Origin: Escherichia coli
Lineage (GTDB): Bacteria > Pseudomonadota > Gammaproteobacteria > Enterobacterales > Enterobacteriaceae
DNA: 64,000 nt
Assembly (NCBI RefSeq): GCF_013315695.1
Contig: NZ_CP054353.1
Direction: 5' to 3' (one strand)
Shown piece by piece: positions 33,752 through 51,965 of the stretch (position 1 is the first letter of the stretch; the number at the start of each line of letters is the position of its first letter). The position numbers and the translations under genes were made by a program. The notes beneath the pieces were generated by a model. The model was not told the origin of the DNA, did not search any database, and saw only the letters and a program-made list of their open reading frames with translations.

Positions 33752-33857
33752 ATTCGGGCACTAATCTGAAAAGTTTGCCCACTGCTTTTTTTCCCCATCC
33801 TCTGCGCAATAATGCCCGGCGAAATATCTCCTCTCCGTTCTGTAAAAGGATTTATAC

Positions 33858-35051
33858 ATGAAGAAAATTGTTCTGCCGGTTGCTCTGGCCCTGATGGGTA
33901 TAAATGCGGACGTTTATGCGGCCGATGTAAAGATCGATATTTTAAGTGCAACAGTGAAAGATAAACGCATTGAGGGGGCATCGGTGACGCTGCAACGCAA
34001 TGGCGCACAATCTGTTTCTGGCACCACAAATGCCTCGGGCAGCATTAATCTGGGCTCTTCCTTTGCCGATGATCAAGATGCTTTGTTAATCGTCAAAAAA
34101 GAGGGCTATTCTAATCTGGTGGTCAAATGCCCGTGTGCGGGCATGACTTATGCGATTAGTCCGGTAATGACTAGTCTGGATGGCATGCGTGTCGTATTGA
34201 GCTGGGGCGAAAAGCCTTTTGATCTTGATTCGCATTTGATCTTCCCTGGCGGACATATTTATTTTGATAGTAAAGAGGGGACTGATGCCAATCTGGATGT
34301 TGATGATACGGATAGCTATGGACCAGAAACTGTCACTATCAGCAAAAAGCATTTTGGCGAAAGTTACATCTATGCCGTGCAGGACTATAGCAATAAAGGG
34401 TTGCCCAACAGTAATTATCTCTCTGCCAGTAAGGCAAAAGTGTTTGTTTATGTAGGGGGCTCCCTGGTGCGTAGTTATAGTGTCCCTGCTGGAAAACGAG
34501 GGAACATCTGGACCGTGTTTAAACTCAATCCAAACGGCGAGTTTGAAGATATCAACTCTGTTACCACCGCCAATTTTAACGACACCACATTAGGCGTCAG
34601 GGATTTAGCCACTGTGATAATGCCTGCGACGGGTTCTTCAACTCCGGCTTCACCTGCGATGCAAAACAGTGGATATACTCAACTGGCAAGAAAATATAAT
34701 CGTGAAGGCGAAGCTGTTTACAAAACCGGTCAACTTGAGCAAGCCATTCAACTCTTCCAACAGGCAACAGAATTAGACGGCAATTACGGTCAGGCATTTA
34801 GTAACCTGGGTCTGGCTTATCAGAAAAATGGCAACATCGCGGAAGCGATTTGGGCAAATCGTAAAGCGATCTCGTTAGCCAGTGGAGCAAATGCGGCGAC
34901 AACGCGCGCTAACTCCTATTATAACATTGCCAAAATTTATGAAACTGCAGGACAGAACGCTGATGCATTGCAGCATTATCAACTCGCTTATGCGGAAAAA
35001 AATAAGCCCTCTTATGAAGAGGCCATCGCACGGGTAAAAGCGAAAATGTAG
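33858..35051 (+). CDS. Secreted protein with YfaP-like (DUF2135-type) central domain and C-terminal TPR repeats
   Basis: 397 aa; Sec signal peptide MKKIVLPVALALMGINADVYAA; motif LSWGEKPFDLDSHL...DANLDVDDTDSYGPETVTI as in YfaP-family proteins; C-terminal TPR-like repeats (AIQLFQQATELDGNYGQAFSNLGLAYQKNGNIAEAI...). First gene of the island. Confidence 0.7.
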   Translation: MKKIVLPVALALMGINADVYAADVKIDILSATVKDKRIEGASVTLQRNGAQSVSGTTNASGSINLGSSFADDQDALLIVKKEGYSNLVVKCPCAGMTYAISPVMTSLDGMRVVLSWGEKPFDLDSHLIFPGGHIYFDSKEGTDANLDVDDTDSYGPETVTISKKHFGESYIYAVQDYSNKGLPNSNYLSASKAKVFVYVGGSLVRSYSVPAGKRGNIWTVFKLNPNGEFEDINSVTTANFNDTTLGVRDLATVIMPATGSSTPASPAMQNSGYTQLARKYNREGEAVYKTGQLEQAIQLFQQATELDGNYGQAFSNLGLAYQKNGNIAEAIWANRKAISLASGANAATTRANSYYNIAKIYETAGQNADALQHYQLAYAEKNKPSYEEAIARVKAKM

Positions 35052-35428
35052 CGGTTAGCAAACAGGAGGCTATGTGGTGTTAGCCTCCTTACCCCCAGGC
35101 CAGTGGGAATATAGTAATCATCGTTTTTAACATTCAACGTCCAGATTCTGCTTGAGCGTAAAAACAAGTCTTTAGATATTTTATAAATGATGAAGGGCTG
35201 GAAAGTGGTTGATGTCACCGACTCACGATCGTTATCGCCAGCAAAGCTTTTTTGCCATTGCACCAGACGCACCTTCAACCATTTTGGCGACGAATCAACT
35301 GCTACCGCCACCAGGCTTGTTTGCCATTTTCCCGTACCTAATTCGTCGCTTGCCGCACTGTTGGCTGTAATCAATGGCCCAATGCCCAACCAGATACTTC
35401 TATATCCGATTGGGTTTTGTTAATTGCG

Positions 35429-36025
35429 TTACCCCTTAAACGTTAACCTCGGTCGAAATCTGACCGCTGGCTGAATTAATCCGGCTTCTTGTTGGGCTTC
35501 GATAACCGGACCAATATCTTTATAAGCAGCTGGCGCTTCTTCAATACGCCGTTCTTCGCGCAATGTGACGCATTGCCACGGCAACGTTGACTCTGCAGTC
35601 GCGCGTGAGCGCATGGCCTGCCGACGCTGGCTGCGTCCTGCTCCGTGACTGCAAGACCACAGCCACTCCGGGTTGCCGCAACCAACCGCAAGCCAGGAAT
35701 AATCACCCATGGAACCGGGGATTAACGCCAGATCGCCCGCGCGTGCCGGTGTTGTGGCCACCACAGCGCCAACGGGGACGCCATTGCCGGGATGAAAATC
35801 TGGCGTCGCGCACGTCTGGCGCACATAACCTGGGTGGTCTGGTAGCTTCACTTCTGCAAAATCAAGCAGTTGTGTTACTGCTTTTTCTTCCAGCGGCAGT
35901 TCGTCCGGCAGCAGTACGCGGGCACTGGCACCTGATGGACGAGATAATGAAACAATATTGTTGGCGCGGGAAAGTTGGATCCCTTTGCGCAGAAAGGCTT
36001 TATCAAGCCTTGAAAGATGATGCAT
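35429..36025 (-). CDS. Shortened RtcB-like protein (RNA-ligase family motifs, central region absent)
   Basis: 198 aa; N-terminal PDFHPGNGVPVGAV resembles the RtcB PDxHxG metal-binding motif, and the C-terminus (IPGSMG...CSHGAGR...AYKDI...FKG) resembles the RtcB C-terminus, but the motifs are about 50 aa apart instead of about 300. Confidence 0.55.
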   Translation of the reverse strand: MHHLSRLDKAFLRKGIQLSRANNIVSLSRPSGASARVLLPDELPLEEKAVTQLLDFAEVKLPDHPGYVRQTCATPDFHPGNGVPVGAVVATTPARAGDLALIPGSMGDYSWLAVGCGNPEWLWSCSHGAGRSQRRQAMRSRATAESTLPWQCVTLREERRIEEAPAAYKDIGPVIEAQQEAGLIQPAVRFRPRLTFKG

Positions 36026-36614
36026 AACGCTGTCCTGAAATATAGACGTTAAACAACCCCCTGTATTGCGAGGGTAATTTTGTCTTTCCGGTCAGCAGCC
36101 AGCAAAAGGGAAAGAAAACGCGCGTAGTGTATGTGGCGATAGCAAGTTTTACAAGTGGTAAATCTGGCTTATTGTTAAAGAGGAATTATCTTTTGTGAAG
36201 TCTTTTAAGGCCATGACTCATTCAATTTAACCGGACATAGATAATATATAACATAGGGTATATAAATTTATCATTGTATACTTGTCATAATTCAAGTTGC
36301 ATGTGCTGCATCGATGTTCGCTCACCCAGGTCACTTACTTATGTAAGTTTCTGGAAATTCATTATTTGTTCCCTTCCTGCAACTTGACTTATTTAGAGTA
36401 TATTCATGTATATGAATAATATTCTTGCAATAATAGCTTTAAAGTATTGCATGCGGATAACTGAGGTGAAATTCCTGTTTTAGGATTATTGTCACTTTAT
36501 TTTCCTGGTTAGACATATAGCTGACTGGTTTGTTTATTTGAATTATGATATTCATTAGTGCTACTGTTTTTTATAAAATAATTTTTGAATTGTTATTTTT
36601 TCACGGACGGCATT

Positions 36615-37520
36615 ATGCGAGGAAAAATACCTAAAACGGAACTGCTGGTGACTTTTGAGGTCGTCGCACGTCATGAAAGTTATACCAGAGCGGCAGAGGA
36701 GTTAGCGTTAACCCAAAGTGCAGTATTCAGACAAGTAAGTGCGCTGGAGGAATTTTTACATACTCCGTTATTTTCACACTCTAAAAAACGCATTTTTCTT
36801 AATGATGCAGGGAAGTATTACCTGGGGATAGTAAAAGAAACATTAAATAAGCTGGAACGCGATACCAATACCATTATGACCTGGCAGCCTACGGTTCAGG
36901 TTATTGAACTTGCCGTTAATCCTACTTTTAGTACCCACTGGTTAATCCCAAATTTACATGAATTCACAAAGTTACATCCCGATATTATTGTTAATATTCA
37001 TTCTTTAGCTAATAACGGCGACTTTCTTAATCGGGAGTACGATGCTGTCATTATGCGCGAAAATTTTTGCGCGCCCTGGGCGGAAGTAGAGTATCTCTTT
37101 GAAGAGGAGATTTTGCCGGTATGCAGCGGCAGTTTGCTTGCAATGTCCGATCAAAAACTGTCAGTGGCAGAACTGCTTACTGAGTTACCACTTCTGCATC
37201 AAAGCACCCGTATTACTGGCTGGGAAGAGTGGTTTGCTTTATCTGGCGTTAGCAGTCCGCTGGTCAATAACGGACCACGTTTCGATTTGCTTTCAATGCT
37301 GATTGCCGCCGTGCGCTCTAATCTCGGCGTGGCGCTGTTACCACGGTTCGCTATTCAACATGATTTGGATAGTGGCGATATGGTGATTCCCTGTGATGTG
37401 CCTATTCGTACCGGTAATCGTTTTATTATGACGTGGCAGGAAGAGAAGTCTGACTCACCGCACTTGCAGCAATTTCGTGAATGGTTGCTGGCGAAATCGG
37501 TCGTACCGCAGGAGATGTAA
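36615..37520 (+). CDS. LysR-family transcriptional regulator
   Basis: Start chosen at MRGKIPKTELLVTFEVVARHESYTRAAEELALTQSAVFRQVSALEE (N-terminal HTH) followed by a substrate-binding domain; divergent from the RtcB-like ORF and convergent with the cobA-like gene. Confidence 0.8.
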   Translation: MRGKIPKTELLVTFEVVARHESYTRAAEELALTQSAVFRQVSALEEFLHTPLFSHSKKRIFLNDAGKYYLGIVKETLNKLERDTNTIMTWQPTVQVIELAVNPTFSTHWLIPNLHEFTKLHPDIIVNIHSLANNGDFLNREYDAVIMRENFCAPWAEVEYLFEEEILPVCSGSLLAMSDQKLSVAELLTELPLLHQSTRITGWEEWFALSGVSSPLVNNGPRFDLLSMLIAAVRSNLGVALLPRFAIQHDLDSGDMVIPCDVPIRTGNRFIMTWQEEKSDSPHLQQFREWLLAKSVVPQEM

Positions 37521-37553
37521 AACCTGCGCCTGGCGGGATGCCAGGCGCAGTTA

Positions 37554-38156
37554 TTACCAGTCGATACCCGGCTGGGCCTGAATGCCGTTATCAAAAGCAT
37601 GTTTGACGGGGCGGATTTCGCTTACCGTATCCGCCATTTTTAATATCTGACTGTGGCAACCGCGTCCGGTGACAATGACACTTTGTTGTGCCGGGCGGTT
37701 TTGCAGAGAAGCGATCACTTCTTCGGTGTCCAGATAATGGTAAGCCAGCATATAGGTCAGCTCATCAAGCACCACTAAGTCGTAACGCTTGTCAGCCAGC
37801 ATCCGTTTGCTTTCCGACCAGACCTCTTTCGCCGCGTCGATATCCGCTTGCCGGTTCTGTGTCTCCCAGGTAAAACCGGTTCCCATAATATGAAACTCAA
37901 CCCCCAGCGGCTGGAGAAGGTTGTATTCGCCGTTGTCCCATTGCCCCTTGATGTACTGCGCAACCCCCACCGTTTTGCCATGACCCACCGCGCGCGTCAC
38001 AGTACCAAACGCGGCAGTGGATTTCCCTTTGCCGTTGCCGGTGAAAACAATCAAGATCCCTTTTTTCTCTATCGCCGCCGCGACGCGCGTATCGACCTGT
38101 TCCTTCAATTTCTGCTGGCGCTGCACATGCCGTTCAGTTGAAATTCGCGCTTCCAT
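37554..38156 (-). CDS. Cob(I)alamin adenosyltransferase (BtuR/CobA family paralog)
   Basis: 200 aa; P-loop GNGKGKSTAA and overall strong similarity to BtuR as recalled (...VFTGNGKGK.TAAFG...RAVGHGK.VGV.Q.IKG.W.NGE...); probably supplies adenosylcobalamin for glutamate mutase. Confidence 0.85.
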   Translation of the reverse strand: MEARISTERHVQRQQKLKEQVDTRVAAAIEKKGILIVFTGNGKGKSTAAFGTVTRAVGHGKTVGVAQYIKGQWDNGEYNLLQPLGVEFHIMGTGFTWETQNRQADIDAAKEVWSESKRMLADKRYDLVVLDELTYMLAYHYLDTEEVIASLQNRPAQQSVIVTGRGCHSQILKMADTVSEIRPVKHAFDNGIQAQPGIDW

Positions 38157-38165
38157 TCATTTTCC

Positions 38166-39818
38166 TTAATGTCCCGCAGGGCAACTGGCGCAGCGGTGTT
38201 TCTGCTCAAACTGACTAAAGAAATTATTGCCTTTATCATCTACCAGGATGAATGCGGGTAAATTTTCCACTTCCATCATCCACACCGCTTCCATACCCAG
38301 CTCCGGGTATTCCAGGCAACGCAGACTTTTGACATATTCTTGCGCCAGTAACGCAGCTGCACCGCCAATACTTCCCAGATTGAAGCCGCCATGTTTGTGA
38401 CAGGCATCGGTGACCTGCTGGCTGCGGTTACCTTTCGATAACATCACCAGACTGCCGCCAGCCGCCTGGAAGGTATCGACATAACCGTCCATTCGACCGC
38501 CCGTGGTTGGACCCAGTGAACCGCAGGCCATGTTCTCCGGTGTTTTCGCCGGGCCAGCGTAATAGACAATATGATGCTTCAGGTAATCCGGCATCGGTTC
38601 GCCGCTATCCAGCCGCGCTTTTATTTTGGCGTGGGCGATATCGCGCGCCACTACGATGGGACCACTTAACGACACGCGGGTGCCTACCGGTAATCTGGCG
38701 AGATCCTGCATCACGTCACGCAACGGACGATTTAGATCCAGCTGTACATGTTGCGCGTGATTTTCTTCCCGCAGTGAGGCTGGAATATATTGCCCCGGAT
38801 TGTGTTCGAGTTTTTCCAGCCAGATACCGTGCTTGTTAATTTTTGCTTTGATATTGCGATCCGCAGAACAGGAGAGCGTCATAGCTATCGGGCAAGAGCC
38901 ACCGTGACGCGGCAGACGAATGACGCGAATATCATGAGCGAAATATTTACCCCCAAATTGCGCACCAATACCAAATTGCTGACTGGCCTCGAGCAATACT
39001 TTTTCCAGCTCAATATCACGGAATGCTTGTCCTTGCTCGTTTCCGCTGGTGGGCAAATTGTCGTAATATTTCGTTGAGGCCAGCTTGGCAACTTTTAAGG
39101 TTTGATCGGCTGAAAGCCCTCCGACGACAAAGGCGATGTGGTAAGGCGGGCAGGCAGCGGTGCCCAGCGATTTCATTTTTTCGATTAAAAATGCGGTCAG
39201 TTTTTCTGGTTGCAATAGGGATTGGGTTTCCTGATAAAGCGCGGCTTTATTGGCAGAGCCGCCCCCTTTATTAATACAGAGAAAATGGTACTCATCACCA
39301 GCGACGGCGCTGATATCAATCTGCGCCGGGAGATTGGTTTGCGTATTGACTTCGGTAAACATATCCAGTGGCGCATTTTGTGAAAAGCGCAGATTATTTT
39401 CCTGAAAAGTGGTGTAAATGCCTTTGCTTAAGGCTTCAGCGTCGTTACCTCCGGTCCATATCTGTTGCCCTTTACTGGCAACAATAGTTGCGGTGCCGGT
39501 ATCCTGACAGTTGGGTAATACCCCTTTTGCTGAGACTTCAGCATTACGTAATAACTGCAACGCAACGTATTTATCATTACTACTGGCGTGCGGATCGTTA
39601 AGAATGCTGGCGACCTGTTGCAAATGAGCGGAACGTAAGAAAAAAGAGGCTTCATAAAATGCCTGCCGGGCAAGCAGCGTTAATGCTTCAGGAGCGATTT
39701 TTATCACTTCTTCGCCGTCTAATTCCGTTACTGTAATATGTTGATCGCTAATTAATGTATATTCTGTACCGTCTTTATTTTGTAGAAACGGTTCTTGCCA
39801 GATAAATGGTTTGGACAT
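38166..39818 (-). CDS. fumD: Class I (Fe-S) fumarate hydratase paralog; mesaconase/fumarase
   Basis: 550 aa, collinear with FumA/FumB ([11 protein letters not shown]...[12 protein letters not shown]...[14 protein letters not shown]...[13 protein letters not shown]...). I recall a mesaconase named FumD from an E. coli O157:H7 glutamate-mutase cluster; symbol given on that basis. Confidence 0.88.
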
Positions 39819-39925
39819 ATTTCACTTTTCACCTTAAACGTTAGTTTTACTTAATTGCCGTCTAACTTCATGATCCGGCTTATAAAAATGCGTAGTCATT
39901 GGCTTCTGATTGCTTAAGATCCCCC

Positions 39926-41206
39926 TCAGGGCAGAGCAACGTTCGATTCATTGGGTTTTAATGCTTTACCCCGACAGCCCTCGCCGAAATGTTCGCCTTC
40001 CCACCGACTCACCATCGCAGCGCCCATTGCGTTGCTCATGACGTTTGTCGCGGAACGCCCCATATCAAGGAACGGATCAACGCCCATCAGCAAGATCAGC
40101 CCCGCTTCCGGAATATTGAACTGGTTGAGCGTGGCGGCGATAACCACCATTGAGGCGCGTGGTACGCCAGCCATTCCTTTCGAGGTCAACATCAGGATCA
40201 ACAGCATGGTGATTTGCTCACCGATGGATAAATGGATATTGCAGGCCTGGGCGATGAAAACTGTGGCGAAGGAGCAGTAGGCCATTGATCCAACGAGATT
40301 AAATGAGTAGCCAATGGGTAAGACAAAGCTGGCAATTTTGGGGGAAACGCCAAATTGCTCCAGTTTTTCAAGCGTTCCCGGAAAAGCCGCTTCAGAACTG
40401 GATGTGGTAAATGCCAGCAGGGCGGGTTCCGAAAGGGCACGGGTCAGGCGTCTGATGCAGGGGCCGACATAAACGATGGCCAGACCGATAAGCAGCACCC
40501 AAAGTAACAACATGGTGAAATAAAATTCACCCATAAAGATCCCGGCGCTCACCATAACTGCCAGTCCTCGTTCAGCAATCAATGCTGAAATAGCGGCGAA
40601 TACGGTCAGGGGAGCGAAGAGCATGACGTAGCCAGTGAGCTTTAACATGGCATGTGCCAGCGAATCTAAGGCGTGAACGATGGCGCTGCCTTTCTCACCA
40701 ATCGCCGTCAGGCTACAGCCGAGGAAAATTGAGAACACCACGATTTGCAAAATTTCATTGTGCGCCATGGCATCGACAATGCTGGTGGGGAAAGCATGCG
40801 AAATAAATACTTTTAGTGTAAAGGGTTCTGACGCGACCACTCCGGTGGTTTCGGCACCGTGTGCAACAAAATTAATTCCTGTGCCTGGCATGAAGAAATT
40901 TACCGTTATCAAGCCTAAGGCAATTGACAGCAATGAGGCGCAAATAAATAAAAAGAGTGTTTTAGAAAAAATACGACCAAGGGCTTTGGCATCTCCCATT
41001 TTAGCTATACCTACCACCAGGGTAGAGACCACTAACGGAGCGATAATCATTTTTATCAGTCGTAAGAAAATCGTCGTGAATATCGATATTTCTTGCGCAT
41101 AGAGTTTTGCGGTTTCCGGTGAAGCAGTGTTATTGAGCACTACGCCGATAATCATTCCAAGTACCAGCGCCAAAAGAATCATCGTGGTTAAACTTATTTT
41201 CTTCAT
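39926..41206 (-). CDS. Dicarboxylate/amino acid:cation symporter (DAACS; GltP/DctA-like)
   Basis: Start at MKKISLTTMILLALVLG (ATG 41206, GGAGG RBS); polytopic membrane protein with DAACS-type conserved segments; substrate (glutamate, mesaconate or citramalate) is not decidable from sequence. Confidence 0.85.
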   Translation of the reverse strand: MKKISLTTMILLALVLGMIIGVVLNNTASPETAKLYAQEISIFTTIFLRLIKMIIAPLVVSTLVVGIAKMGDAKALGRIFSKTLFLFICASLLSIALGLITVNFFMPGTGINFVAHGAETTGVVASEPFTLKVFISHAFPTSIVDAMAHNEILQIVVFSIFLGCSLTAIGEKGSAIVHALDSLAHAMLKLTGYVMLFAPLTVFAAISALIAERGLAVMVSAGIFMGEFYFTMLLLWVLLIGLAIVYVGPCIRRLTRALSEPALLAFTTSSSEAAFPGTLEKLEQFGVSPKIASFVLPIGYSFNLVGSMAYCSFATVFIAQACNIHLSIGEQITMLLILMLTSKGMAGVPRASMVVIAATLNQFNIPEAGLILLMGVDPFLDMGRSATNVMSNAMGAAMVSRWEGEHFGEGCRGKALKPNESNVALP

Positions 41207-41366
41207 TTTTTCCTCCATCAGGTGCACGGCGATAAATCAGAATCAGGAGAAGTAGATGCCTGAATAGAGATTCAGGCATCTACCTGCTATTACAACCTTA
41301 CAAATAGCTGAAGTGTTGAACTGCAATAAGTGACGGGATGTCAGTTGGCTAAAAGTATTCGGATTT

Positions 41367-41684
41367 TTACAAATCGAAACTCATATTTAATAAAGGTGCA
41401 TGTTGCTGTGCACCATAGACATCATTGTCACCTACATTCCCGGAGATAATATCTCGTGGCATGACGATTTTTACTGCGTTAGAAGGATCAAACCAGACAA
41501 TACGGTGAATAAAGTCAGGTTCAACATGATATAAGCGCGCAATCAGTTCTGGGGTTAATTGCCCTGATGATTTAACTCGCTCATAGTTTTCTTTCGTTTT
41601 AAATAAAATATCTAAAACCAGTTCGTAAGGTCCGGCATTTTTCGAACGAATGACTTGCGCCAGTGAGACAATTGACTGTTTCAT
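41367..41684 (-). CDS. Small conserved protein, DUF4387-like partner of the AtuA-like protein
   Basis: 105 aa; start overlaps the stop of the upstream DUF1446 ORF by 4 nt (translational coupling); family assignment from memory. Confidence 0.55.
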   Translation of the reverse strand: MKQSIVSLAQVIRSKNAGPYELVLDILFKTKENYERVKSSGQLTPELIARLYHVEPDFIHRIVWFDPSNAVKIVMPRDIISGNVGDNDVYGAQQHAPLLNMSFDL

Positions 41685-43051
41685 GCCTGAACTCCTTCTG
41701 GCGTCACCTGTTCAATATGGAAATCAAAACGCAGAGCGTCGTTGGCTTCAATCAGGTGATATATGGAAAATTCGTATACCGGCCCGCCCTGGATATCAGA
41801 AGGGGAGAACGGGAACGCCAGATTGCCTGCGGTAGCGATGCGGTTTTCATAGCCGTAGTGCAGCATGGTAGAGCGCACCAGCGAGCAAACGCTATTGGCA
41901 ATTTCCTGGGTCGGTGCAACTACATCAAGGACAATCCCCAGCTCATGCCCGGCAGTTTGCATCGGTTCATGGTCGCCCATCACCCCGTTTTTGCCGTACA
42001 GGTGGAAATTGATGCGAATGCTGTCATCGTCGAGCGACAGGTTACGCCAAACGCTGGTTTTGACTTCATCGATGATTTTATCGATCCCGGCGATCATGAT
42101 CGGGTCGCGCGTTCCTGCGATGGTCAGACAGCGGAAGCCCACCCGTCGCGCACCTTCCAGTTTCAGGGCATACGGCGTTTCTTCATGCTTAGAACCGCTG
42201 ACGTACACTTCGCCGTCATTGACCGCTTTAAATGTGCAGCCTTTCAGGTTCAACACGCCGCCAGGTCCAGGCAGGAAGTAGGGATCGGATTTCTCATACA
42301 GTGTGTGTGCAGCCGCTGACGTTTCGGTAAATTTACGCTTCGGATTAAATGTCTTCAGCGTAAAGCCGTTGTCATCAATGATGCCCATCGCACAGTCAGA
42401 GCCTGAGCCGGGCGTTGCGGCGATTGCCGCGCATTCAAGGATTTTCCCACAATGCAGCGCCAGACCTTCATCAAAGCCTTGCATGATCGGGAGCGCAGCA
42501 AAGCAGGCCGGGTCGTAAGCGCGCCCGCCCAGCACCACTTGCGCGCCTTCTTTCAGCGCCCGCTGGAAGGGTTCGATGCCCATTTGCGCGACGATATACG
42601 TACTTTCGTCAATCGCGTCGTGGGTTAACGGCGGGACAAAATCCAGCGCCGTGATTTTGCCGTTATCCAGCGCCTGGTGGACGATGGCTTTGTCAACGTC
42701 TGCCGGGATCAACGCCATCGAGAACGAGAGGTGCTCTTCCTGGGCAATCTCATGAATTATTTCTCGGCACCACTCCAGGTGTGGTGCGGCACCAGAACCG
42801 CCAGCTGTTCCGATCACCACCGGTATATTATTTTGCACGCCTGCGGTGATCATATAGCGCAGATCGCGCTTGACCCCTGCGCGATCGGTAAACGGTTTGC
42901 CTGCCCCGAGGTAGTGGGGGCCTGGATCGGAAGAGCCTGCATCAACGGCGATCAGATCGGGCGATTCTGCCATCGCTTTGCGGAAGCTCTCTTCCGGGAA
43001 TCCATACCCGAGGATTGCCGTTGGCGATAAGACTTTAAAAGAACGAGCCAT
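41681..43051 (-). CDS. AtuA-like protein (DUF1446 family), function unknown
   Basis: 456 aa; N-terminal G-Y-G-F...D-A-G-S region resembling the DUF1446 signature; starts 3 nt after the methylaspartase stop. Confidence 0.65.
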   Translation of the reverse strand: MARSFKVLSPTAILGYGFPEESFRKAMAESPDLIAVDAGSSDPGPHYLGAGKPFTDRAGVKRDLRYMITAGVQNNIPVVIGTAGGSGAAPHLEWCREIIHEIAQEEHLSFSMALIPADVDKAIVHQALDNGKITALDFVPPLTHDAIDESTYIVAQMGIEPFQRALKEGAQVVLGGRAYDPACFAALPIMQGFDEGLALHCGKILECAAIAATPGSGSDCAMGIIDDNGFTLKTFNPKRKFTETSAAAHTLYEKSDPYFLPGPGGVLNLKGCTFKAVNDGEVYVSGSKHEETPYALKLEGARRVGFRCLTIAGTRDPIMIAGIDKIIDEVKTSVWRNLSLDDDSIRINFHLYGKNGVMGDHEPMQTAGHELGIVLDVVAPTQEIANSVCSLVRSTMLHYGYENRIATAGNLAFPFSPSDIQGGPVYEFSIYHLIEANDALRFDFHIEQVTPEGVQA

Positions 43052-43054
43052 TTG

Positions 43055-44296
43055 TTAATCCTTAGCCTGCAACAGCGCGATAGTACGATTCATTTCGTTG
43101 AAGACGATATCGAGGCCTTCGTCAAAGCCCATCCCTGGCTTTACCAGCATACGCATAGGGCGAGCGGCAAGGGCGACGTGGACACAGGTGCGGGCACTGA
43201 CATCAGTTTCATTGCAGGTGCCGCCCTGGTACGCTTCCATGCTGTGGCTGTTGCAGTAAAGAACCGCATCGACGATGTTGTGAATACTGCCCAGATCCGG
43301 GGTTTTGATTTGCACCATGTGACAACTGGCGGCATCAGTGAAATCAACAATATCCTGGTAGGTGTTACACCATTCATCGGCCACAATTTTCACGCCGGAA
43401 CCGAGGCGCGTCAGCTCTTTGGTAATCGCGGTCAGCAGGCGAATTTGATCGGGCTTGTTACCGGCATCGACCGGCCCTTCAATGTAGAGCGGCAGGCCTT
43501 GCGCTTCTTTTTCCAGGCTGGCGATGTATTGCGCACAGCGAAGCGGATCCATATCGAAGATCAGGCCGATAGTGCCGTATACATCGATGTGCAGGGTTGG
43601 GTGGTAGCGTGCGCTGGTGCGCTTGCTCAGAATACGATCCGACAGCCAGCGGACATATTCGCGCAGTTTTTCACCTTTAAAGCCCAGTTTCTCTTCGACG
43701 TTATTAATCAGTGCATGGGGCAGCACGTCGATGCCCTTAAGGATCATCTTATCGACGGCGATATATCGATCGTCCCCGCTCTGACCAAATAATGGAATGG
43801 ATTCCGCCACGCGTGGCAACTGCCATTCATCACAGACCACTTCAGTTTTCAGACGGCCGGTTGCCAGCGCGGTAGCATCAAGCAGCGCCTGTGATAATCC
43901 GTAGCGCACGGCGGTATGCAGCAAGTTGCCGTCAATACGCAATTTGTCGAAGAAACGGGCATTCGGCAGGAAAGCATCCACATCGCGGCCTATCAGTAAT
44001 GGCTTGATATGGTCGTTGAGGAACGGAATAAAGTGCTCAGCGAGGAACAGTGGATCGCGACCACCTGCCCCGGAATACTGTACGGCAGCACAGTCACCTA
44101 CGGCGACCGCGCCGTTTTCCAGAATCAACTGTACCGATACGCACTCCCCGGCCTGACGAACGGCGTTAAACCCCTGTGTTACCGGCTCCCCGGTATAAAA
44201 AAAGCCGTCATGACCCGCTCCGTTTTTTATCGCCTGCTGGTCATCGAAATAGAATGAGGAGTAGCCAGCAGTGAACAGAGCCTGTTTTATTTTCAT
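43055..44296 (-). CDS. 3-methylaspartate ammonia-lyase (beta-methylaspartase)
   Basis: 413 aa; very close to clostridial MAL as recalled: ...YFDDQ.AIK.GAGHDGF.YTG...AVQYSGAGGRDPLFLA...QSGDDRY..VDKMI.K..DVLPHALINNVEEKLG.KGEKL...HMVQIKTPDLG...GGTCNET. Confidence 0.92.
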   Translation of the reverse strand: MKIKQALFTAGYSSFYFDDQQAIKNGAGHDGFFYTGEPVTQGFNAVRQAGECVSVQLILENGAVAVGDCAAVQYSGAGGRDPLFLAEHFIPFLNDHIKPLLIGRDVDAFLPNARFFDKLRIDGNLLHTAVRYGLSQALLDATALATGRLKTEVVCDEWQLPRVAESIPLFGQSGDDRYIAVDKMILKGIDVLPHALINNVEEKLGFKGEKLREYVRWLSDRILSKRTSARYHPTLHIDVYGTIGLIFDMDPLRCAQYIASLEKEAQGLPLYIEGPVDAGNKPDQIRLLTAITKELTRLGSGVKIVADEWCNTYQDIVDFTDAASCHMVQIKTPDLGSIHNIVDAVLYCNSHSMEAYQGGTCNETDVSARTCVHVALAARPMRMLVKPGMGFDEGLDIVFNEMNRTIALLQAKD

Positions 44297-45741
44297 TATG
44301 GTCTTCCTATTAATTTACTGTGGGATACAGCATTGATGTCATCTACAACCATCTGGAATGTCGGTTGGCGTCCTTCAAAGCGTGCGCGTTCCGCAACGTA
44401 ATCGTGGTGGAGGTCGAGAATATCTTTTGGCAATGGAACGGCTCCGGCTTCCAGTACGCGTATCGCGCCGGTGTTGTCACGGACCGGAAGAATTTTGCCC
44501 GCGTTGCAGGCGGCTGGCGCAAACGGCACATCCAGTACGCCCGCTTCAAATGCCAGCACCGTACCGCGCGCAATATCACCATTACCCAGTTCGAACACTT
44601 TATTCAGTACCGCGTGAACCTCGCTCTTAATCAGTTCAATTTCCAGTTCAACCGCAGGGCACGGCGGGAATTTCTGCTCGTTGACCATGTTGAGCATCTG
44701 GCGGGAGGCTTTCAGCCCCTGAATGTTGGCAGCGGCAGTCGGGATGCCCCAGGCTTCGTGCGGACTTTTGGTGATGACTTTGGTGGCACCAGACATCCCC
44801 GCGACGGCTGCGCCCCAGGAGATAATAGCGAACGCTTTCGATTCGTCTTCCGGAAAGCCGCCCATCCACTGGTGAAACACGGTACTTAATTCATAGTCGG
44901 TATAGCCATAGCTCTGAAAATATTCGTGTGCAAGTTCACGCAGAGACTGGATCGCCGCAACATCCTGCGTCAGGCTGCCGACCTGTCCATAACCAACGGT
45001 GATAGATTTCACACCCTGTTCCAGCGCCAGTAATCCTTCGATTATCGCGATAGAGTGCGAGATAAACGGCGGGATCAGGGTACCCGTTAGTGGGCCAAAC
45101 GGTTCGCGGTTGATGCGGATCCCGTGTTCTTCATACATCCCCATTAAACGGTCGCAGTACTGCCAGTCGCGGATCGATTTTTCCAGCGTTACGCGCTTGG
45201 CATACGGAATGTTGTAGGAAATGCCGCCGCCTTCATAACTGGTAAAGCCGCTGGCCATCGAGATTTCAGCCAGCAGACGCGCATCTGGCGTGCCGTGGCG
45301 GATCTGTAGCGGTTTTTGCAAAGTTTCGGTGAGGCGACGGCAAGCTGCGACGCCGTGGTTAACGACCGGTAAACCGTTCAGTTTAGAGGTTCCGGCTTCG
45401 ATGGATTTTTTAATCCCTACAGCCGCTTCTTCGTACCGATTCAGACGGGTATATGCGTCGATGGTGCTCGGCAGCAGATCGCATTCTTCTTGTAGTGTTT
45501 TCAGTAGTTCGATGTGTTCGTCCATCAGCGCCACGCCTGCGCGCGGTTGGCTAAGAGTTTTACCTTCCTTGTCTGCTTTCAGCAGGGCAAGAGAGAAGCG
45601 TTTATGCTCAGGAATGGTTTGTTGGTATTTAACGCCATCTTCAAAGTTTTCAACATCCTTGCCGGTTTCCCAGGTTTTCAGTACCTGTTGCCGCTCGGTC
45701 ATGAATTCGTCATGGGTTAATTTCTTATTTCGAAGTTCCAT
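44296..45741 (-). CDS. Glutamate mutase epsilon (E, catalytic) subunit
   Basis: 481 aa; collinear with clostridial GlmE/MutE (MELRNKK...QPRAGVAL.DEHIELL...LPSTIDAYTR.NRYE...GTPD.RLLAEI...EGGGISYN.PYAK...FQMV.DDI.AV). Confidence 0.92.
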   Translation of the reverse strand: MELRNKKLTHDEFMTERQQVLKTWETGKDVENFEDGVKYQQTIPEHKRFSLALLKADKEGKTLSQPRAGVALMDEHIELLKTLQEECDLLPSTIDAYTRLNRYEEAAVGIKKSIEAGTSKLNGLPVVNHGVAACRRLTETLQKPLQIRHGTPDARLLAEISMASGFTSYEGGGISYNIPYAKRVTLEKSIRDWQYCDRLMGMYEEHGIRINREPFGPLTGTLIPPFISHSIAIIEGLLALEQGVKSITVGYGQVGSLTQDVAAIQSLRELAHEYFQSYGYTDYELSTVFHQWMGGFPEDESKAFAIISWGAAVAGMSGATKVITKSPHEAWGIPTAAANIQGLKASRQMLNMVNEQKFPPCPAVELEIELIKSEVHAVLNKVFELGNGDIARGTVLAFEAGVLDVPFAPAACNAGKILPVRDNTGAIRVLEAGAVPLPKDILDLHHDYVAERARFEGRQPTFQMVVDDINAVSHSKLIGRP

Positions 45742-45759
45742 TGATTGCAGCCTTAATTG

Positions 45760-47148
45760 TTATAGGGTTAAGCATTGAATACTGGTGCGCGCGGCGGCCA
45801 GCGGATCGACTCTGGCGACGTTTGCCAGCAGTGGTAATAGCCCCCGGGAATCGCGGTAATATTCAAATTCGGTCGGTAAGAGAATGCGTTTACCGTCGTC
45901 GTTTAACTCGCGGTATTTCAACCAGTGATGCATATCGAACTGACTGGCACGCGAGAGCCATCCGCCGGATCCGACGACTTTACGCACGGTTGTCAGGTCA
46001 CGTCCCATCTGTAAATCGACATTGCCGACGCAGGTGCAGACCTCTTTTTTGGTGCCCGCATGTCTTTCGGTGGCATAACCCACACACAGTCCGGCCAGGA
46101 CTGTATCGAAATATTTTTCTTCTGCATTCGCGGGTAAGTAGTCGGGATGAGCGACTAGATGACGGAGGTAATGATAAAAAGCGTCCAGCTGTGCGGGTTG
46201 CTGAGCAAAATTCACATTGACTAACTCTTTCGCACTTTCACCAACCACCATTGCCGAGACGCGCATTCCCAGATCGCCTTCCACCGTCCGTTTCACGAAG
46301 GGTTCCGGTACGCCGTGTAAAACGGTGTCGGGCGAGAGCGTGTTGGCACAGGCGGAATAGACATCGGTGGTTGCGCCACCCATGTCGATCAGTATGAACT
46401 CTTTCCAGCTGTGATCGACATTACTGATTGCCTTAACCAGTTCAAAGACTGTCCACGGTGTCGGCATTGGTTCTTCGCCTGTTTTATCAACAACGACATC
46501 CAGCCCTTTCCCTTTAACGATGCGTTTAAGGAATATGTCGCAGATAGCCTGGCGTGCAGCTAAAGGGTTCGGATGGTCAAGATCGGGCAGAACGTTGTCG
46601 ACGATGGTCAGGTCTTTATGCCCTAGGATCTCCTGCACCTCGTCCTGAATATCCCGGTTTCCGGCATAAATAATGGCGCAGTCGAGTTTGGATTCTGCCA
46701 GCACACGGGCGTTATTCAGGCCGTAGCTTTCTTCTCCGCCGTCGGTGCCGCCGGTGAACAAGAGAATATCGGGCTGCGTTTCTTCCAGTGCCTGGATATC
46801 ACGGCGGTTCAGCTTGTAGGAGTAATATTGCGCAATTTTAGCCCCCGCAGAGTGAGCGGTTACTTTCGCGGTTTCCAGGGTGATAGAAGGCACCAATCCC
46901 ATTGCGGCAACCGCCAGCCCACCTTTGGCAGAGGAGGAATACTTCAATGCAACCTCACCGTTGTTAAACAGGGGGAGGGTATTATCTACGTTTAACACCA
47001 GGTTCAGGCTGGAGAAAAACCCCTTCGCCAGATGATGGGTGGTGGTTGGGGTCAGTACGTGGTTAACCAACGTTAACGCGTCCCCCTCCCGGGCGAAGAG
47101 GGCTGCTTTGGTCCACGTCGATCCAATATCGACAGAGACGATTTGCAT
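45760..47148 (-). CDS. Glutamate mutase-associated protein L (GlmL/MutL-type putative chaperone or reactivase)
   Basis: 462 aa; N-terminal [18 protein letters not shown] (ASKHA/actin-like ATPase start); sits between the S and E subunit genes as in clostridial mutS-mutL-mutE. Confidence 0.8.
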   Translation of the reverse strand: MQIVSVDIGSTWTKAALFAREGDALTLVNHVLTPTTTHHLAKGFFSSLNLVLNVDNTLPLFNNGEVALKYSSSAKGGLAVAAMGLVPSITLETAKVTAHSAGAKIAQYYSYKLNRRDIQALEETQPDILLFTGGTDGGEESYGLNNARVLAESKLDCAIIYAGNRDIQDEVQEILGHKDLTIVDNVLPDLDHPNPLAARQAICDIFLKRIVKGKGLDVVVDKTGEEPMPTPWTVFELVKAISNVDHSWKEFILIDMGGATTDVYSACANTLSPDTVLHGVPEPFVKRTVEGDLGMRVSAMVVGESAKELVNVNFAQQPAQLDAFYHYLRHLVAHPDYLPANAEEKYFDTVLAGLCVGYATERHAGTKKEVCTCVGNVDLQMGRDLTTVRKVVGSGGWLSRASQFDMHHWLKYRELNDDGKRILLPTEFEYYRDSRGLLPLLANVARVDPLAAARTSIQCLTL

Positions 47149-47597
47149 CAGATTGCCTCTTCAAGAATACGAGTATCAACGTCATGACGTTGGTTGATAT
47201 CGTGTGCCATCAGCTGACAAACATCTTCTAAGTCATGACTTGGGGCAAAGACGCGATCAAATCCCATCTCTTTGAATTTGGTTTCCACGTCAGCGAAGTC
47301 ATGTTTTCCGACCACCAGGTTACCGCCCACATAGAGCAGGATGTCCCCCAGTCCACGCTCGATGCAGCGTTCGCGCATGCCCAGACAGTCGATATCGCCA
47401 TGCCCATAGATAGAGGAGACGACAATCGCGTCAGCGCCAGTTTCAATGGCCGCATCAATATATTCGTCCTGGCTGACCATTACGCCCAGATTAATGACTC
47501 TGAAGCCATGGTTGCTAAAAACGCGGTCCAGAACTTTATTGCCTACTGCATGGCAGTCCGCGCCAATAACGCCAATCACAAGTGTTGCTTTCTTCAT
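47148..47597 (-). CDS. Glutamate mutase sigma (S, B12-binding) subunit
   Basis: Start at ATG 47597 ([27 protein letters not shown]...), 149 aa; B12-binding DxHxxG motif; AAGGA RBS. Track ORF with the longer N-terminus is rejected. Confidence 0.9.
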
Positions 47598-48143
47598 GGG
47601 TAATCCTTTGTAAGACAGAGAGTAAAATAAGTTACACACGTCGTATTTATGGCCGTTCATAACGGCACAGGTTTAATATCACAGGAGTGTCTTTATCTGA
47701 CCGTAATGTTGCAATTGATCTATTTTCAAAATGTCTTTCGGGAAATGATTGTTTAAAGTATGTTGTTAAATTCTCATGTTAATTCAGTGTGTTATGTCAA
47801 CTAATGTCATGAATGTTAAATTTTTAAAATTAACTTGATTTGGTGTATTGAGGTATTTGTGATCTACTTCTAATTTGCATTTTAGTGATATGGGTTTAGC
47901 CATGAGTAAATGCATTTCATAAAATTTAAGTCGAATTTCACTGCAATTCATCTCTGCTTAATGTAAAAATAATGTTGAAAATAACAAATGGTTAATGATT
48001 CATGCGAATTATGACCTTAGTTAGCTCTTTTGATTTTTCGTAAAAAAGAGAGGTACATGAAGGTGCTACCAGTATGAGTAACGTTAATCAAAGGTTTTAT
48101 TACGTCTGGCAATAACGCAGGCCATTTTCGCGACTGGGTGGAT

Positions 48144-48566
48144 TTAATCAGTATAATCCTCATACAATAGTTCACGATTAACTGAACCGTTAACGGGGAT
48201 TTGGTGTTGAAATTTAGAAATGGCGGAGTCAATTAATGAAGACAATATCGAAAAAATGACAGTGTCAGAATTAATTTCAATTAATCCTTCTCGTTGTTGA
48301 CCAAAAAAGATATTTATCTTGATTTCATTTGTACTACGGCAATCAATATGTAGTAATTTTTGATCGCTGAGATTTTCTGTTTCATAAATGTTTTTGGCGA
48401 TAGTCGGATGTATTGATGCCAGACATCTGCTCAGATAAGCCAGATCCTTTAGGGAACACCCCGCTGAGTAGAGGATGTCAGAGAATTTTTGTGTGTTAAC
48501 TGTTGTCTCTGAAGCGTATGTTGCATTGACAGGAAGGGTGTTGAAAGAGATTTGAGATGGGAGCAT
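48144..48566 (-). CDS. Hypothetical protein (low-GC, no recognisable domain)
   Basis: 140 aa ORF 80 bp downstream of the 314-aa ORF on the same strand; no signal peptide or TM helix apparent. Confidence 0.4.
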   Translation of the reverse strand: MLPSQISFNTLPVNATYASETTVNTQKFSDILYSAGCSLKDLAYLSRCLASIHPTIAKNIYETENLSDQKLLHIDCRSTNEIKINIFFGQQREGLIEINSDTVIFSILSSLIDSAISKFQHQIPVNGSVNRELLYEDYTD

Positions 48567-48646
48567 TATTTAAATCTTTCCGTGAGTAATAAAAATTAAT
48601 CCCCGGGCATTGTTTAGCAATATTTGCCACAGGTAATATATAAAAA

Positions 48647-49591
48647 TTAAAGTATTTGATTGGCATCGGTTAACTGATCAATAACCAGTGCCAGATTGGT
48701 AAACATTTTGAAAAAGCGATACTGGCTCGGAATATCTCTTTCAAAGACGAAACATTCAATGTCATTGTTTGAAAAATAAAGGACTAGTGTTGCTGATTCG
48801 TCAGGAAAAATATGGAAATATATCTGGTTACCAGAAGGAGGATAGTCCAGAAGAAGGGTATCTTTGCCCGTCACATACCTGTTGTGGTCGTGGATGCTGC
48901 GCTCACACTTCATCAGAGGTGTCATGATACTCATGTATTCATCTGATGTTAATATATTAAAATCACCATCCATTTTAAAGAAACGATAAAGTAACAGTAC
49001 ATCCTCTTGCGTAACCGGTTCGTTTGTTTTTAGAGGGAAATAAGTGGGAACCAGAAGATGAGGTTCTAATCTATTTTGTTGAGCGCTATAACTAAATTTG
49101 AACATAAATTCCGGATCGCTCATCAATTGAGCGACATAATTATGCCTGGCTTCAAAAATTTTAACTTTTATCAGGTTAAATAAGTCTGTTTCGTCATCCT
49201 GTATTAAAAGACATTGGCCATAGCAGCCAGGCTTTTTTTCATTATAAGCAGAAACGGTTATTCTGTCAGGAGTGTCAACGTTATATCCAAAAGCCAGATA
49301 GTGACCGTCCTCATCGAGATTTGTTTCCAGGTTATTTAAATTTATCACATGAAGTGTTTGCAATGCTGATTCAATGAGCTGTTGACTCTCTGAGGTAAAT
49401 GTTTCGCGCTGCGTTGTATAAAGTGTATCGATTCCAACGACTATCCGATATGGGTCAAGGATGGCGGCAATCATCTTTATTACCTGCACAGCCACGGGTG
49501 ATGTCATTGATTCGTTATCTGTTTTTAGAGGATCATTAGATGGCCAACCTGAGAAGCGATTGACAGCCGAACCGATATTATCAGGACTCAT
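48647..49591 (-). CDS. Hypothetical protein (low-GC, no recognisable domain)
   Basis: 314 aa ORF in a strongly AT-rich stretch (roughly 38-40 percent GC by eye); acidic, apparently soluble; no family recognised. Confidence 0.5.
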   Translation of the reverse strand: MSPDNIGSAVNRFSGWPSNDPLKTDNESMTSPVAVQVIKMIAAILDPYRIVVGIDTLYTTQRETFTSESQQLIESALQTLHVINLNNLETNLDEDGHYLAFGYNVDTPDRITVSAYNEKKPGCYGQCLLIQDDETDLFNLIKVKIFEARHNYVAQLMSDPEFMFKFSYSAQQNRLEPHLLVPTYFPLKTNEPVTQEDVLLLYRFFKMDGDFNILTSDEYMSIMTPLMKCERSIHDHNRYVTGKDTLLLDYPPSGNQIYFHIFPDESATLVLYFSNNDIECFVFERDIPSQYRFFKMFTNLALVIDQLTDANQIL

Positions 49592-50045
49592 AGCAGCAAC
49601 CTCATTGTAATCAAGCGAGGCGCTGAGCGTACTCGGCTATAGAAAAACTAACTTGCAAAAATCGCTCATTTTTCATTTATCAGGCGAAAGTGGTCTCTGT
49701 TCACTCAGAAACAATCACTCCCGCTAAGTCATACCTGTTTCATCGATACACTTAAGTGATTATTACTAATGAAACAATAACATAACGGGCTTACGGCCGG
49801 TGCTCATAAAGGCAACAATCAATTAACTTTGATAAAAATATGTTATGTAAAATAGCAACAAATTGGCTAATCTAATCAATTGGTATTATAAAAAGTGGAT
49901 AAGGCGGTTCTGTTAAATAAAACACTGGTTTTTTATCTATACCTTTTCATTGTAATAATTGTGTTGCATAAATATTTCACAATAAATTAACAATAAAATC
50001 ACCAATGATCTATGGTTTATACATAATTAACATATTTGGTTGGTT

Positions 50046-50059
50046 TTGATATAAATCAA
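50046..50059. promoter_or_regulatory. FNR-type box (TTGAT-N4-ATCAA) in the cydAB upstream region
   Basis: Perfect palindrome TTGATATAAATCAA about 340 bp upstream of cydA; a second half-matched site TTGATCACTGTCGAA lies near 50150. Confidence 0.5.
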
Positions 50060-50396
50060 TTTTTAATTCTTGAAAAAAATCTGCAAAACACGATAAATTG
50101 TCGTAGATCAAATTGGTGAGATCGTGACAATTTCGCTATAAATTGATCACTGTCGAAAAATGCAAATTTGCTCAATAAAAACCTGTTTATTGTAAGGATT
50201 TTGCGGCGTAATATAATTACGGGATCAATTTGGTTTATTCATTAACATATTTGTAACTTTTTTATCATTGTCTTTTCCTCTTTTGATGAAATGGCAACGA
50301 TAGAGGCGAGCAAATAATTTTGTATTGGGGCATGCGTGTGACCCTTTCTAACGGGGTTCACTCTCGGAGTCTTCATGCGATGAGCAAGGAGTCATG

Positions 50397-51965
50397 ATGT
50401 TAGATATAGTCGAACTGTCGCGCTTACAGTTTGCCTTGACCGCGATGTACCACTTCCTTTTTGTGCCACTGACGCTCGGTATGGCGTTCCTGCTGGCCAT
50501 TATGGAAACGGTCTACGTCCTTTCCGGCAAACAGATTTATAAAGATATGACCAAGTTCTGGGGCAAGTTGTTTGGTATCAACTTCGCTCTGGGTGTGGCT
50601 ACCGGTCTGACCATGGAGTTCCAGTTCGGGACTAACTGGTCTTACTATTCCCACTATGTAGGGGATATCTTCGGTGCGCCGCTGGCAATCGAAGGTCTAA
50701 TGGCCTTCTTCCTCGAATCCACCTTTGTAGGTCTGTTCTTCTTCGGTTGGGATCGTCTGGGTAAAGTTCAGCATATGTGTGTCACCTGGCTGGTGGCGCT
50801 CGGTTCAAACCTGTCCGCACTGTGGATTCTGGTTGCGAACGGCTGGATGCAAAACCCAATCGCGTCCGATTTCAACTTTGAAACTATGCGTATGGAGATG
50901 GTGAGCTTCTCCGAGCTGGTGCTTAACCCGGTTGCTCAGGTGAAATTCGTTCACACTGTAGCGTCTGGTTATGTGACTGGCGCGATGTTCATCCTCGGTA
51001 TCAGCGCATGGTATATGCTGAAAGGTCGTGACTTCGCCTTCGCTAAACGCTCCTTTGCTATCGCTGCCAGCTTCGGTATGGCTGCCGTTCTGTCTGTTAT
51101 TGTTCTGGGTGATGAATCTGGTTACGAAATGGGCGACGTGCAGAAAACCAAACTGGCTGCTATTGAAGCCGAGTGGGAAACGCAACCTGCGCCTGCTGCC
51201 TTTACTCTGTTCGGCATTCCTGATCAGGAAGAGGAGACGAACAAATTTGCGATCCAGATCCCTTACGCGCTGGGCATCATTGCAACGCGTTCCGTGGATA
51301 CTCCAGTTATCGGCCTGAAAGAACTGATGGTGCAGCATGAAGAACGCATTCGTAACGGGATGAAGGCGTACTCTCTGCTCGAGCAACTGCGTTCTGGTTC
51401 TACCGACCAGGCGGTTCGTGACCAGTTCAATAGCATGAAGAAAGACCTCGGTTACGGTCTGCTGCTGAAACGCTATACGCCAAACGTGGCTGATGCGACT
51501 GAAGCGCAGATTCAACAGGCAACCAAAGACTCCATTCCGCGTGTAGCGCCGCTGTACTTCGCGTTCCGTATTATGGTGGCGTGTGGCTTCCTGCTGCTGG
51601 CAATCATCGCGCTCTCTTTCTGGAGTGTCATCCGCAACCGCATTGGCGAGAAAAAATGGCTGCTGCGCGCCGCGCTGTACGGTATTCCGCTGCCGTGGAT
51701 TGCTGTAGAAGCGGGCTGGTTCGTGGCTGAATATGGCCGCCAACCGTGGGCTATCGGTGAAGTGCTGCCGACAGCTGTGGCGAACTCGTCACTGACCGCA
51801 GGCGATCTCATCTTCTCAATGGTGCTGATTTGCGGCCTGTATACCCTGTTCCTGGTGGCAGAATTGTTCTTAATGTTCAAGTTTGCACGCCTCGGCCCAA
51901 GCAGCCTGAAAACCGGTCGCTATCACTTTGAGCAGTCTTCCACGACTACTCAGCCGGCACGCTAA
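50397..51965 (+). CDS. cydA: Cytochrome bd-I ubiquinol oxidase subunit I
   Basis: Start at second ATG ([28 protein letters not shown]), 522 aa. Confidence 0.97.

Follow-up and report, generated by a model that had tools for sequence, protein, structure and literature searches.

We analysed a pair of open reading frames (ORFs), here called orfA and orfB, that lie between the glutamate mutase gene glmS and the region upstream of cydA in a 64,000-nucleotide stretch of Escherichia coli DNA (contig NZ_CP054353.1 of assembly GCF_013315695.1; hereafter, the window). The ORF list places orfA at 48647..49591 on the minus strand (314 aa) and orfB at 48144..48566 on the same strand (140 aa), both with an ATG start. 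The spacer between them (48567..48646, minus strand; taken from the sequence and an alignment of four alleles) is 80 nt long, and the two frames differ, as their starts are 1025 nt apart (2 mod 3). Both genes are called as coding sequences in RefSeq genomes and annotated as "hypothetical protein"; they correspond to ECs0767 (orfA) and ECs0766 (orfB) in O157:H7 Sakai, where glmS is ECs0764 and cydA is ECs0768, and to WP_001571128.1 and WP_000937861.1, respectively, in strain MS 21-1.

The base composition of this part of the window is unusual. GC content was 0.33-0.39 in each 500-bp bin from 47501 to 50500, compared to ~0.50-0.56 on both flanks, making this the longest AT-rich stretch in the window; the sole comparable one spans 36001-37000. 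The GC content of orfA was 38.6%, with a third-codon-position value (GC3) of 0.36, and that of orfB was 36.4% (GC3 of 0.33), while the comparison genes glmL and cydA had a GC content of 53% and GC3 values of 0.59-0.62. A sequence-only reading of the window had described two same-strand frames of 314 and 140 aa, 80 bp apart and out of frame with one another, placed between glmS and the cydA upstream region in the most AT-rich DNA of the window and unlike the flanking core genes. The ORF list, the annotated gene order, the 500-bp bins, and the per-gene GC and GC3 values agree with that description on every point.

In DNA of 38% GC, stop codons should arise roughly once per 15 codons, and by our own calculation a 314-codon open frame has a chance of ~1e-9 per start, so the ORFs are not chance occurrences. 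When orfA was compared with its counterpart at one E. albertii locus (L002), we counted 219 nucleotide differences (22% divergence) with no indel and no stop codon. The synonymous (dS) and non-synonymous (dN) rates were 0.52 and 0.23 (dN/dS of 0.44), and non-synonymous changes were under-represented (binomial P=1e-5). When 219 substitutions were placed at random 5000 times, the orfA frame stayed open in 0/5000 simulations. The dN/dS was 0.38-0.60 within E. coli and 0.2-0.6 within E. albertii, where counts are small; for comparison, it was 0.06-0.12 for glmS, ~0.2 for glmL, and ~0 for cydA. The N-terminal third of orfA was the most constrained (dN/dS of 0.30), with 83-87% identity over residues 46-90. 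A Shine-Dalgarno sequence, GAGG, was located in the sequence and the allele alignment 8 nt before the ATG (49600..49603, minus strand); the E. coli alleles share it, and its E. albertii counterpart is AAGG. The 314-aa frame was intact in all 12 of the E. coli alleles sampled across the identity range and in four of five E. albertii loci. These comparisons indicate that orfA is a genuine gene under moderate purifying selection.

The evidence that orfB is a coding gene is weaker than that for orfA because its frame stayed open by chance in 13% of simulations. Its dN/dS was 0.18-0.40 (0.35 for the most divergent E. coli pair, binomial P=0.0025). Ten of the 12 E. coli alleles carried an intact orfB, and two were frameshifted, yielding 38 aa in O145:H28 RM12581 and 160 aa with an altered C-terminus in UTME-7. 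Every E. albertii locus examined had lost orfB by a nonsense mutation or a deletion: three loci (L011-L013) have a TGA at codon 36 beside an intact orfA, and the gene is mostly deleted both in L002, where orfA is intact, and in the type strain (L007), where orfA is frameshifted. In Escherichia sp. MOD1-EC7003 the 5' part of orfB is deleted and orfA is interrupted by an element resembling the enterobacterial repetitive intergenic consensus (ERIC). One E. coli strain, Br_112_kylling (L023, 1537-5510), has IS4-family/ISVsa5 insertions that split orfA and flank orfB; among the 1135 carrier genomes described below, it is the only one in which the match covers <80% of the query. As read from these alleles, the downstream cistron orfB is under weak constraint, has been repeatedly pseudogenised, and is being lost.

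We also considered whether orfA and orfB might be pieces of one gene. No fused allele was found, and intact alleles always encoded 314 and 140 aa, so this possibility was rejected and the two stand as separate ORFs rather than parts of a single degraded gene. Long variants of orfB are frameshift products or assembly chimeras. A 56-aa ORF in the third frame (48496-48666) covers the stop codon of orfA and the start codon of orfB, and in some metagenome-derived sequences a frameshift joins it to orfB to give 173-aa products (P0006 and P0029); such products probably reflect errors made in sequencing or assembly, or else frameshift alleles that are rare. Likewise rejected were an internal duplication within orfA and a paralogous relationship of orfB to either half of orfA, as hhalign gave a probability of 0.5% and Smith-Waterman scores fell inside the shuffle range.

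Both predicted proteins are acidic, with a pI of 4.59 for OrfA and 4.92 for OrfB (15.7 kDa), and both appear soluble; OrfA is predicted to be alpha/beta. The Kyte-Doolittle maximum over 19 aa was 1.45 for OrfA and 1.37 for OrfB, below the level of a membrane helix or signal peptide, and Ser, Thr, Asn, Pro, and Gln made up 47-53% of the first 30 residues of each. Neither protein matched Pfam or NCBIfam (E<=0.001), and no DNA-binding or enzymatic domain was found in either with Pfam. Searches of the defence models in PADLOC-DB v2 returned no family even at E<=1, PHROGs gave no significant match (the sole entry was PHROG 24553, a family of unknown function, at E=0.076), and sequence profiles from the PDB gave nothing under E=0.9. 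Together with the hydropathy profiles, these negative searches agree with the earlier observation that the proteins lack a signal peptide, a transmembrane helix, or an assignable motif. AlphaFold2, run on shallow Escherichia-only alignments, gave models with a mean predicted local distance difference test (pLDDT) score of 43.7 for OrfA and 42.4 for OrfB, and fold searches with these low-confidence models returned noise only. Of the checks that had been suggested for the proteins, homology searching found no family, while structure prediction gave low-confidence models.

An exhaustive phmmer search with OrfA against 1.84 billion cluster representatives returned 14 matches, all of them fragments of OrfA with 74-100% identity. 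Word-indexed single-sequence and profile searches, on which the range of OrfB rests (the exhaustive scan was for OrfA), found both proteins in Escherichia and Shigella only. Using one genome per GTDB species, we found relatives of orfA at four loci: in E. albertii, in Escherichia sp. MOD1-EC7003, and on two E. coli-like contigs in metagenome-assembled genomes. The latter two genomes are labelled Citrobacter sp. (L005) and Collinsella sp. (L006), and the orfA contigs in them share 98% identity with E. coli and are almost certainly E. coli sequence assigned to the wrong bin. A tblastn search of phages and plasmids gave no true match; three records labelled as plasmids are 0.7-4.9 Mb in size. On the exhaustive search, orfA is classed as a taxonomically restricted orphan confined to Escherichia, and on the word-indexed searches orfB is likewise classed as an Escherichia-restricted orphan.

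Within E. coli, the pair was present in 1135 of 5426 complete genomes, always in a single place per genome, and glmSLE was likewise present in 1135. Carriers include strains of O157:H7, O145:H28, and O127:H6 that are positive for the enterocyte effacement locus (LEE), together with strains, among them MS 21-1 from the colon, that are not known to be attaching-effacing pathogens. What keeps the two genes together as a unit in E. coli is vertical linkage alone.

Transcription of the locus appears to be very low. In published RNA-seq data for strain EDL933 (PMC4048457, Tables S2 and S4), the four hypothetical ORFs between glmS and cydA, with the gene assignment inferred from the Sakai annotation, had values of 0-12 reads per kilobase per million mapped reads (RPKM) across 11 conditions, compared to 2-212 for cydA. 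The sequence-only reading had held that a pair that was neither transcribed nor translated and never conserved as a unit would count against its proposal; the near-background signal, and a pairing that is kept through vertical linkage alone, go part of the way towards that outcome.

The AT-rich divergent intergenic region between orfA (minus strand) and cydA (plus strand), at 49592..50393, contains the cydAB control region, and its sequence is shared with E. albertii, MOD1-EC7003, and LF82. Any orfA promoter must sit in this region. A sigma-70 scan found no strong consensus upstream of orfA, and the minus-strand sites that it predicted all lie within orfA. A terminator scan gave no candidate site in the spacer or downstream of orfB; with none in the spacer, orfA and orfB are likely co-transcribed. 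Within the spacer, 8-10 nt ahead of the orfB start codon, is a weak Shine-Dalgarno-like sequence (GGAAAG/GGTGA). In E. coli, AT-rich DNA is the preferred binding target of H-NS, which silences it, and the cydAB control region is a place where this protein acts. The locus combines two features expected of H-NS-silenced DNA, low GC content (0.33-0.39 vs. ~0.52 in the flanks) and low transcription in the wild type, and its near-silence is most probably due to H-NS-type silencing that extends from the cydAB control region.

The sequence-only reading had raised, as speculation, the possibility that the pair is an interdependent module of the toxin-immunity, effector-chaperone, or phage-defence kind. 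The distribution of broken alleles bears directly on this. orfA is independent of orfB, since it remains intact and under constraint in genomes whose orfB carries a frameshift, a nonsense mutation, or a deletion, and the existence of intact orfA without orfB makes it unlikely that OrfB is a neutraliser, a chaperone, or an obligate partner of OrfA. Nor did the locus look like a cassette: a search for flanking direct or inverted repeats gave only short, weak matches, and the pair was not found in any other genomic context, on phages, or on true plasmids, only at one place per genome beside cydA. With no PADLOC or Pfam match added to the single, immobile context and the survival of orfA after the loss of orfB, the proposal of an interdependent module is not supported.

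A toxin-immunity, toxin-antitoxin (TA), or anti-phage pair, with OrfA as the effector or toxin and OrfB as its neutraliser or the reverse, would fit the layout of the locus, in which a larger gene is followed closely on the same strand by one for a small acidic protein, as in type II TA systems and two-gene defence or toxin-immunity cassettes. It would also fit the AT-rich, fast-evolving, lineage-restricted DNA. If OrfA is taken as the toxin of a type II TA system, an intact toxin should be accompanied by an intact antitoxin; we found intact, constrained orfA beside broken orfB, which is incompatible with OrfB as an essential neutraliser of an active OrfA, a result that concerns this arrangement only. 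Unlike such cassettes, the pair matched no PADLOC, Pfam, or NCBIfam model, was never seen at another locus or on mobile DNA, and has metabolic and respiratory neighbours rather than a defence island. The 80-nt gap, in place of a tight or overlapping junction, and the near-absence of transcription are also unlike typical autoregulated TA operons. We therefore regard this explanation as very unlikely.

Loss of one gene independently of the other would be less of an obstacle if both were orphan immunity proteins, kept or lost independently, that protect against the polymorphic toxins of competitors, such as those of contact-dependent inhibition (CDI), Rhs, type VI secretion, or colicin type. Both proteins are acidic, cytoplasmic, small to medium in size, and without an enzymatic motif, and they evolve rapidly within one lineage. 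Yet no Imm or SUKH family in Pfam was matched, the DNA upstream holds only the cydA control region with no toxin gene or remnant, 314 aa is large for an immunity protein, and protection requires expression whereas transcription here is near background. This idea, too, strikes us as quite improbable.

The possibility that OrfA is an effector of type III secretion and OrfB its chaperone was considered in light of the LEE-positive O157:H7, O145:H28, and O127:H6 carriers. The size and acidity of OrfB (140 aa, 15.7 kDa, and pI 4.9) are typical of class I chaperones of the CesT/SycE type, a weak and non-specific likeness, and the Ser/Thr/Asn/Pro/Gln-rich N-termini of both proteins, including the polar N-terminus expected of an effector on OrfA, point the same way. 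Class I chaperones have the secondary-structure order alpha-beta3-alpha-beta2-alpha. The low-confidence OrfB model instead has three helices, three strands, and a helix, no chaperone or effector family in Pfam was matched, and the locus lies outside any prophage or effector island and is unlinked to a type III secretion system. Carriage by strains that are not known to be attaching-effacing, such as MS 21-1, and the dispensability of orfB, which is lost while orfA persists, weigh further against such a pair, and we give it hardly any credence. None of the toxin-immunity, defence, and effector-chaperone readings is positively supported, and every one of them falls short on one or more defining tests; the locus accordingly drops off the list of candidate defence or toxin systems.

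To place the genes in their wider context, we compared the whole interval between sucD and cydA. The MS 21-1 locus, which is 100% identical to the window, begins with sucD, a gene for a tetratricopeptide repeat (TPR) protein, a hypothetical gene, an RtcB fragment, and a LysR pseudogene; continues with cobO and genes for a class I fumarase (FumD), a symporter, a DUF4387 protein, AtuA, and methylaspartate ammonia-lyase; and ends with glmE, glmL, glmS, orfB, and orfA, followed by cydA on the opposite strand. orfA and orfB, or what is left of them, adjoin cydA in E. coli, E. albertii, and Escherichia sp. MOD1-EC7003. Because this cydA-adjacent position is the same in all three, the genes predate the split of these species. 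The order in E. albertii L011-L013 is cydA, orfA, orfB, glmS, while L002 and L007 have cydA, orfA, an orfB remnant, and the sucD-side genes with no glm operon. On the simplest reading of these arrangements, orfA and orfB were already beside cydA in the Escherichia ancestor and were later lost from most E. coli; the pair is missing, apparently through loss, from ~79% of complete E. coli genomes. A foreign origin had been suggested from the base composition. The composition is indeed atypical, but the position shared with E. albertii and MOD1-EC7003 shows that the genes are not a recent import.

The one-to-one co-occurrence with glmSLE in E. coli (1135 genomes each), the location of orfA and orfB on the glm operon strand and upstream of it, and the constant divergent orientation of orfA to cydA could mean that they are accessory or regulatory genes of the glutamate mutase/methylaspartate operon or of cydAB. 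This is contradicted by E. albertii L002 and L007, which keep orfA without the glm operon and show that orfA is independent of it. A glm cluster has been reported in Klebsiella, Citrobacter, Salmonella, and other genera (PMC4682846), and the exhaustive phmmer search found no homologue of orfA in these genera or elsewhere outside Escherichia. Likewise, ~79% of E. coli genomes have cydAB without the pair, and no DNA-binding or enzymatic domain was detected in either protein. A role in either neighbouring operon is therefore extremely unlikely.

Several further observations were made along the interval. The sucD-cydA region (window ~33600-50000) is a hot spot for replacement, and it takes at least five forms: mngR-mngAB in REL606 (K-12 type); a TPR gene only in LF82; the TPR gene, RtcB fragment, LysR pseudogene, and glm island in the window strain; LysR and the glm island in Sakai; and a gene for an outer-membrane-like protein of 258 aa in E. 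albertii L002. Homology to the window restarts at 50021 for REL606 and 49756 for LF82. Upstream of cydA, a 380-bp segment (50021-50393) is only ~81% identical to the K-12/REL606 type although the CydA proteins are identical; the window-type DNA is >90% shared with LF82, E. albertii, and MOD1-EC7003, leaving the K-12 type as the outlier, and a conserved core (alignment A3, columns ~175-290) lies between replaced segments. On this alignment, the cydAB control region is represented by two deeply diverged alleles.

On the other side of the pair, the AT-rich stretch at 47598..48143 (minus strand) was delimited from the ORF list, composition, annotation, and an Rfam scan. The longest ORF at glmS (47148-47660) is 170 aa with a start at 47660, compared to the RefSeq protein of 149 aa, which starts at 47597 (MKKATL...). 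A B12 (cobalamin) riboswitch or another RNA in the AT-rich spacers was ruled out, as the Rfam scan of 47400-50500 gave no match at E<=1; there is thus no cobalamin riboswitch in 47598..48143.

Toward sucD, the 'RNA-splicing ligase RtcB' ORF (35429-36025; L001 1830-2426), located beside the TPR and hypothetical genes, is 198 aa, far under the length of full RtcB, and is presumably a fragment. The LysR-type regulator gene at 36615-37520 (L001 3016-3921) stands at the far end of the glutamate-fermentation island. In the window strain it contains an internal stop and is annotated as a pseudogene, and in Sakai it is intact (ECs0755); this may affect how the island is regulated. The AT-rich gap between these two contains a diverged ERIC-like repeat (36277-36403) that agrees at 20/22 positions with the ERIC2 primer sequence; the ERIC consensus had no match in the window within 3 mismatches. 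Related copies occur in MOD1-EC7003 within orfA and beside the orfB remnant (L008 10345-10472 and 11087-11213). The ERIC-like family has therefore actively disrupted the locus in that strain.

The explanation we favour, and consider reasonably probable, treats orfA and orfB as two almost silent orphan genes that are restricted to the genus and translated separately, with orfA kept by selection and orfB decaying. The pair would belong to the ancestral border, on the cydA side, of the variable region between sucD and cydA, outside the glutamate mutase pathway and not part of a mobile cassette, and its products would be small, acidic, soluble cytoplasmic proteins encoded in AT-rich DNA that is almost untranscribed under laboratory conditions. 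Purifying selection would hold orfA open in E. coli and most E. albertii regardless of orfB or the glm operon. Its role might then be that of a conditional, non-essential accessory protein, for example, in protein binding rather than catalysis, which is a guess.

The most serious challenge to this explanation is that both genes are functionless, decaying relics of an old acquisition, with some residual constraint, that persist in E. coli through linkage to the glm island. Near-silent transcription, dN/dS values as high as 0.4-0.6, loss of the region from ~79% of E. coli genomes, the repeated breakage of orfB, and the disruption of orfA in the E. albertii type strain, MOD1-EC7003, and one insertion sequence-carrying E. 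coli would all be expected of relics. A 314-codon frame without an indel through 22% divergence (0/5000 simulations) would not, nor would too few non-synonymous changes (P=1e-5), an orfA intact in 12/12 E. coli alleles and 4/5 E. albertii loci, or a dN/dS of 0.2-0.6 within E. albertii (on small counts). We consider it unlikely that the genes are relics, although several findings do count against the explanation we favour. The E. coli integrity sample comprised 12 alleles only, the published ribosome profiling (Ribo-seq) and enterohaemorrhagic E. coli H-NS chromatin immunoprecipitation (ChIP) supplements searched contain no entry for either gene, and the low-confidence structure models (pLDDT of 43.7 and 42.4) favour neither a binding protein nor an enzyme. 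In addition, with a dN/dS of ~0.4, which is high, and with its frame broken by a frameshift in the E. albertii type strain (L007) and by the ERIC-like element in MOD1-EC7003, orfA is dispensable and may be on its way out.

The closest known counterparts of the pair are taxonomically restricted orphan genes in the AT-rich, silenced accessory DNA of enterobacteria, as seen in the many 'hypothetical' genes of E. coli O-islands. Common to both are a lack of homologues beyond a single genus, a GC content that has not ameliorated and lies well under the genome average, transcription close to background in laboratory culture, a raised dN/dS, and a patchy distribution among strains with frequent loss. 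The locus is not mentioned in an O-island review. Unlike those orphans, orfA and orfB lie outside a prophage or an integrase-bounded island and hold a fixed position beside a core respiratory operon in at least three Escherichia species, and orfA is unusually long (314 aa) and clearly constrained. A bolder proposal, which we put forward as speculation with little expectation that it is correct, is that OrfA founds a new, Escherichia-only protein family, possibly with a new fold and with no relative among ~15 billion predicted proteins. Such a gene, born de novo or diverged beyond recognition beside cydAB and kept open since before the E. coli/E. albertii split, could serve in a particular niche, for instance during colonisation of the gut or in competition between strains, with an effect that shows only once silencing is lifted.

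As things stand, orfA and orfB are one more uncharacterised accessory gene pair, and they are not part of the adjoining glutamate-fermentation island. orfA does occur in important pathotypes, including O157:H7, O145:H28, and enteropathogenic E. coli O127:H6. If orfA has a condition-specific function, it would be a well-defined, long (314-aa) genus-specific orphan whose age, position, and selection can be read from genomes. The locus would then offer a test case for the persistence of orphan genes in silenced AT-rich DNA, with natural carriers and non-carriers and with the decaying orfB as an internal contrast.

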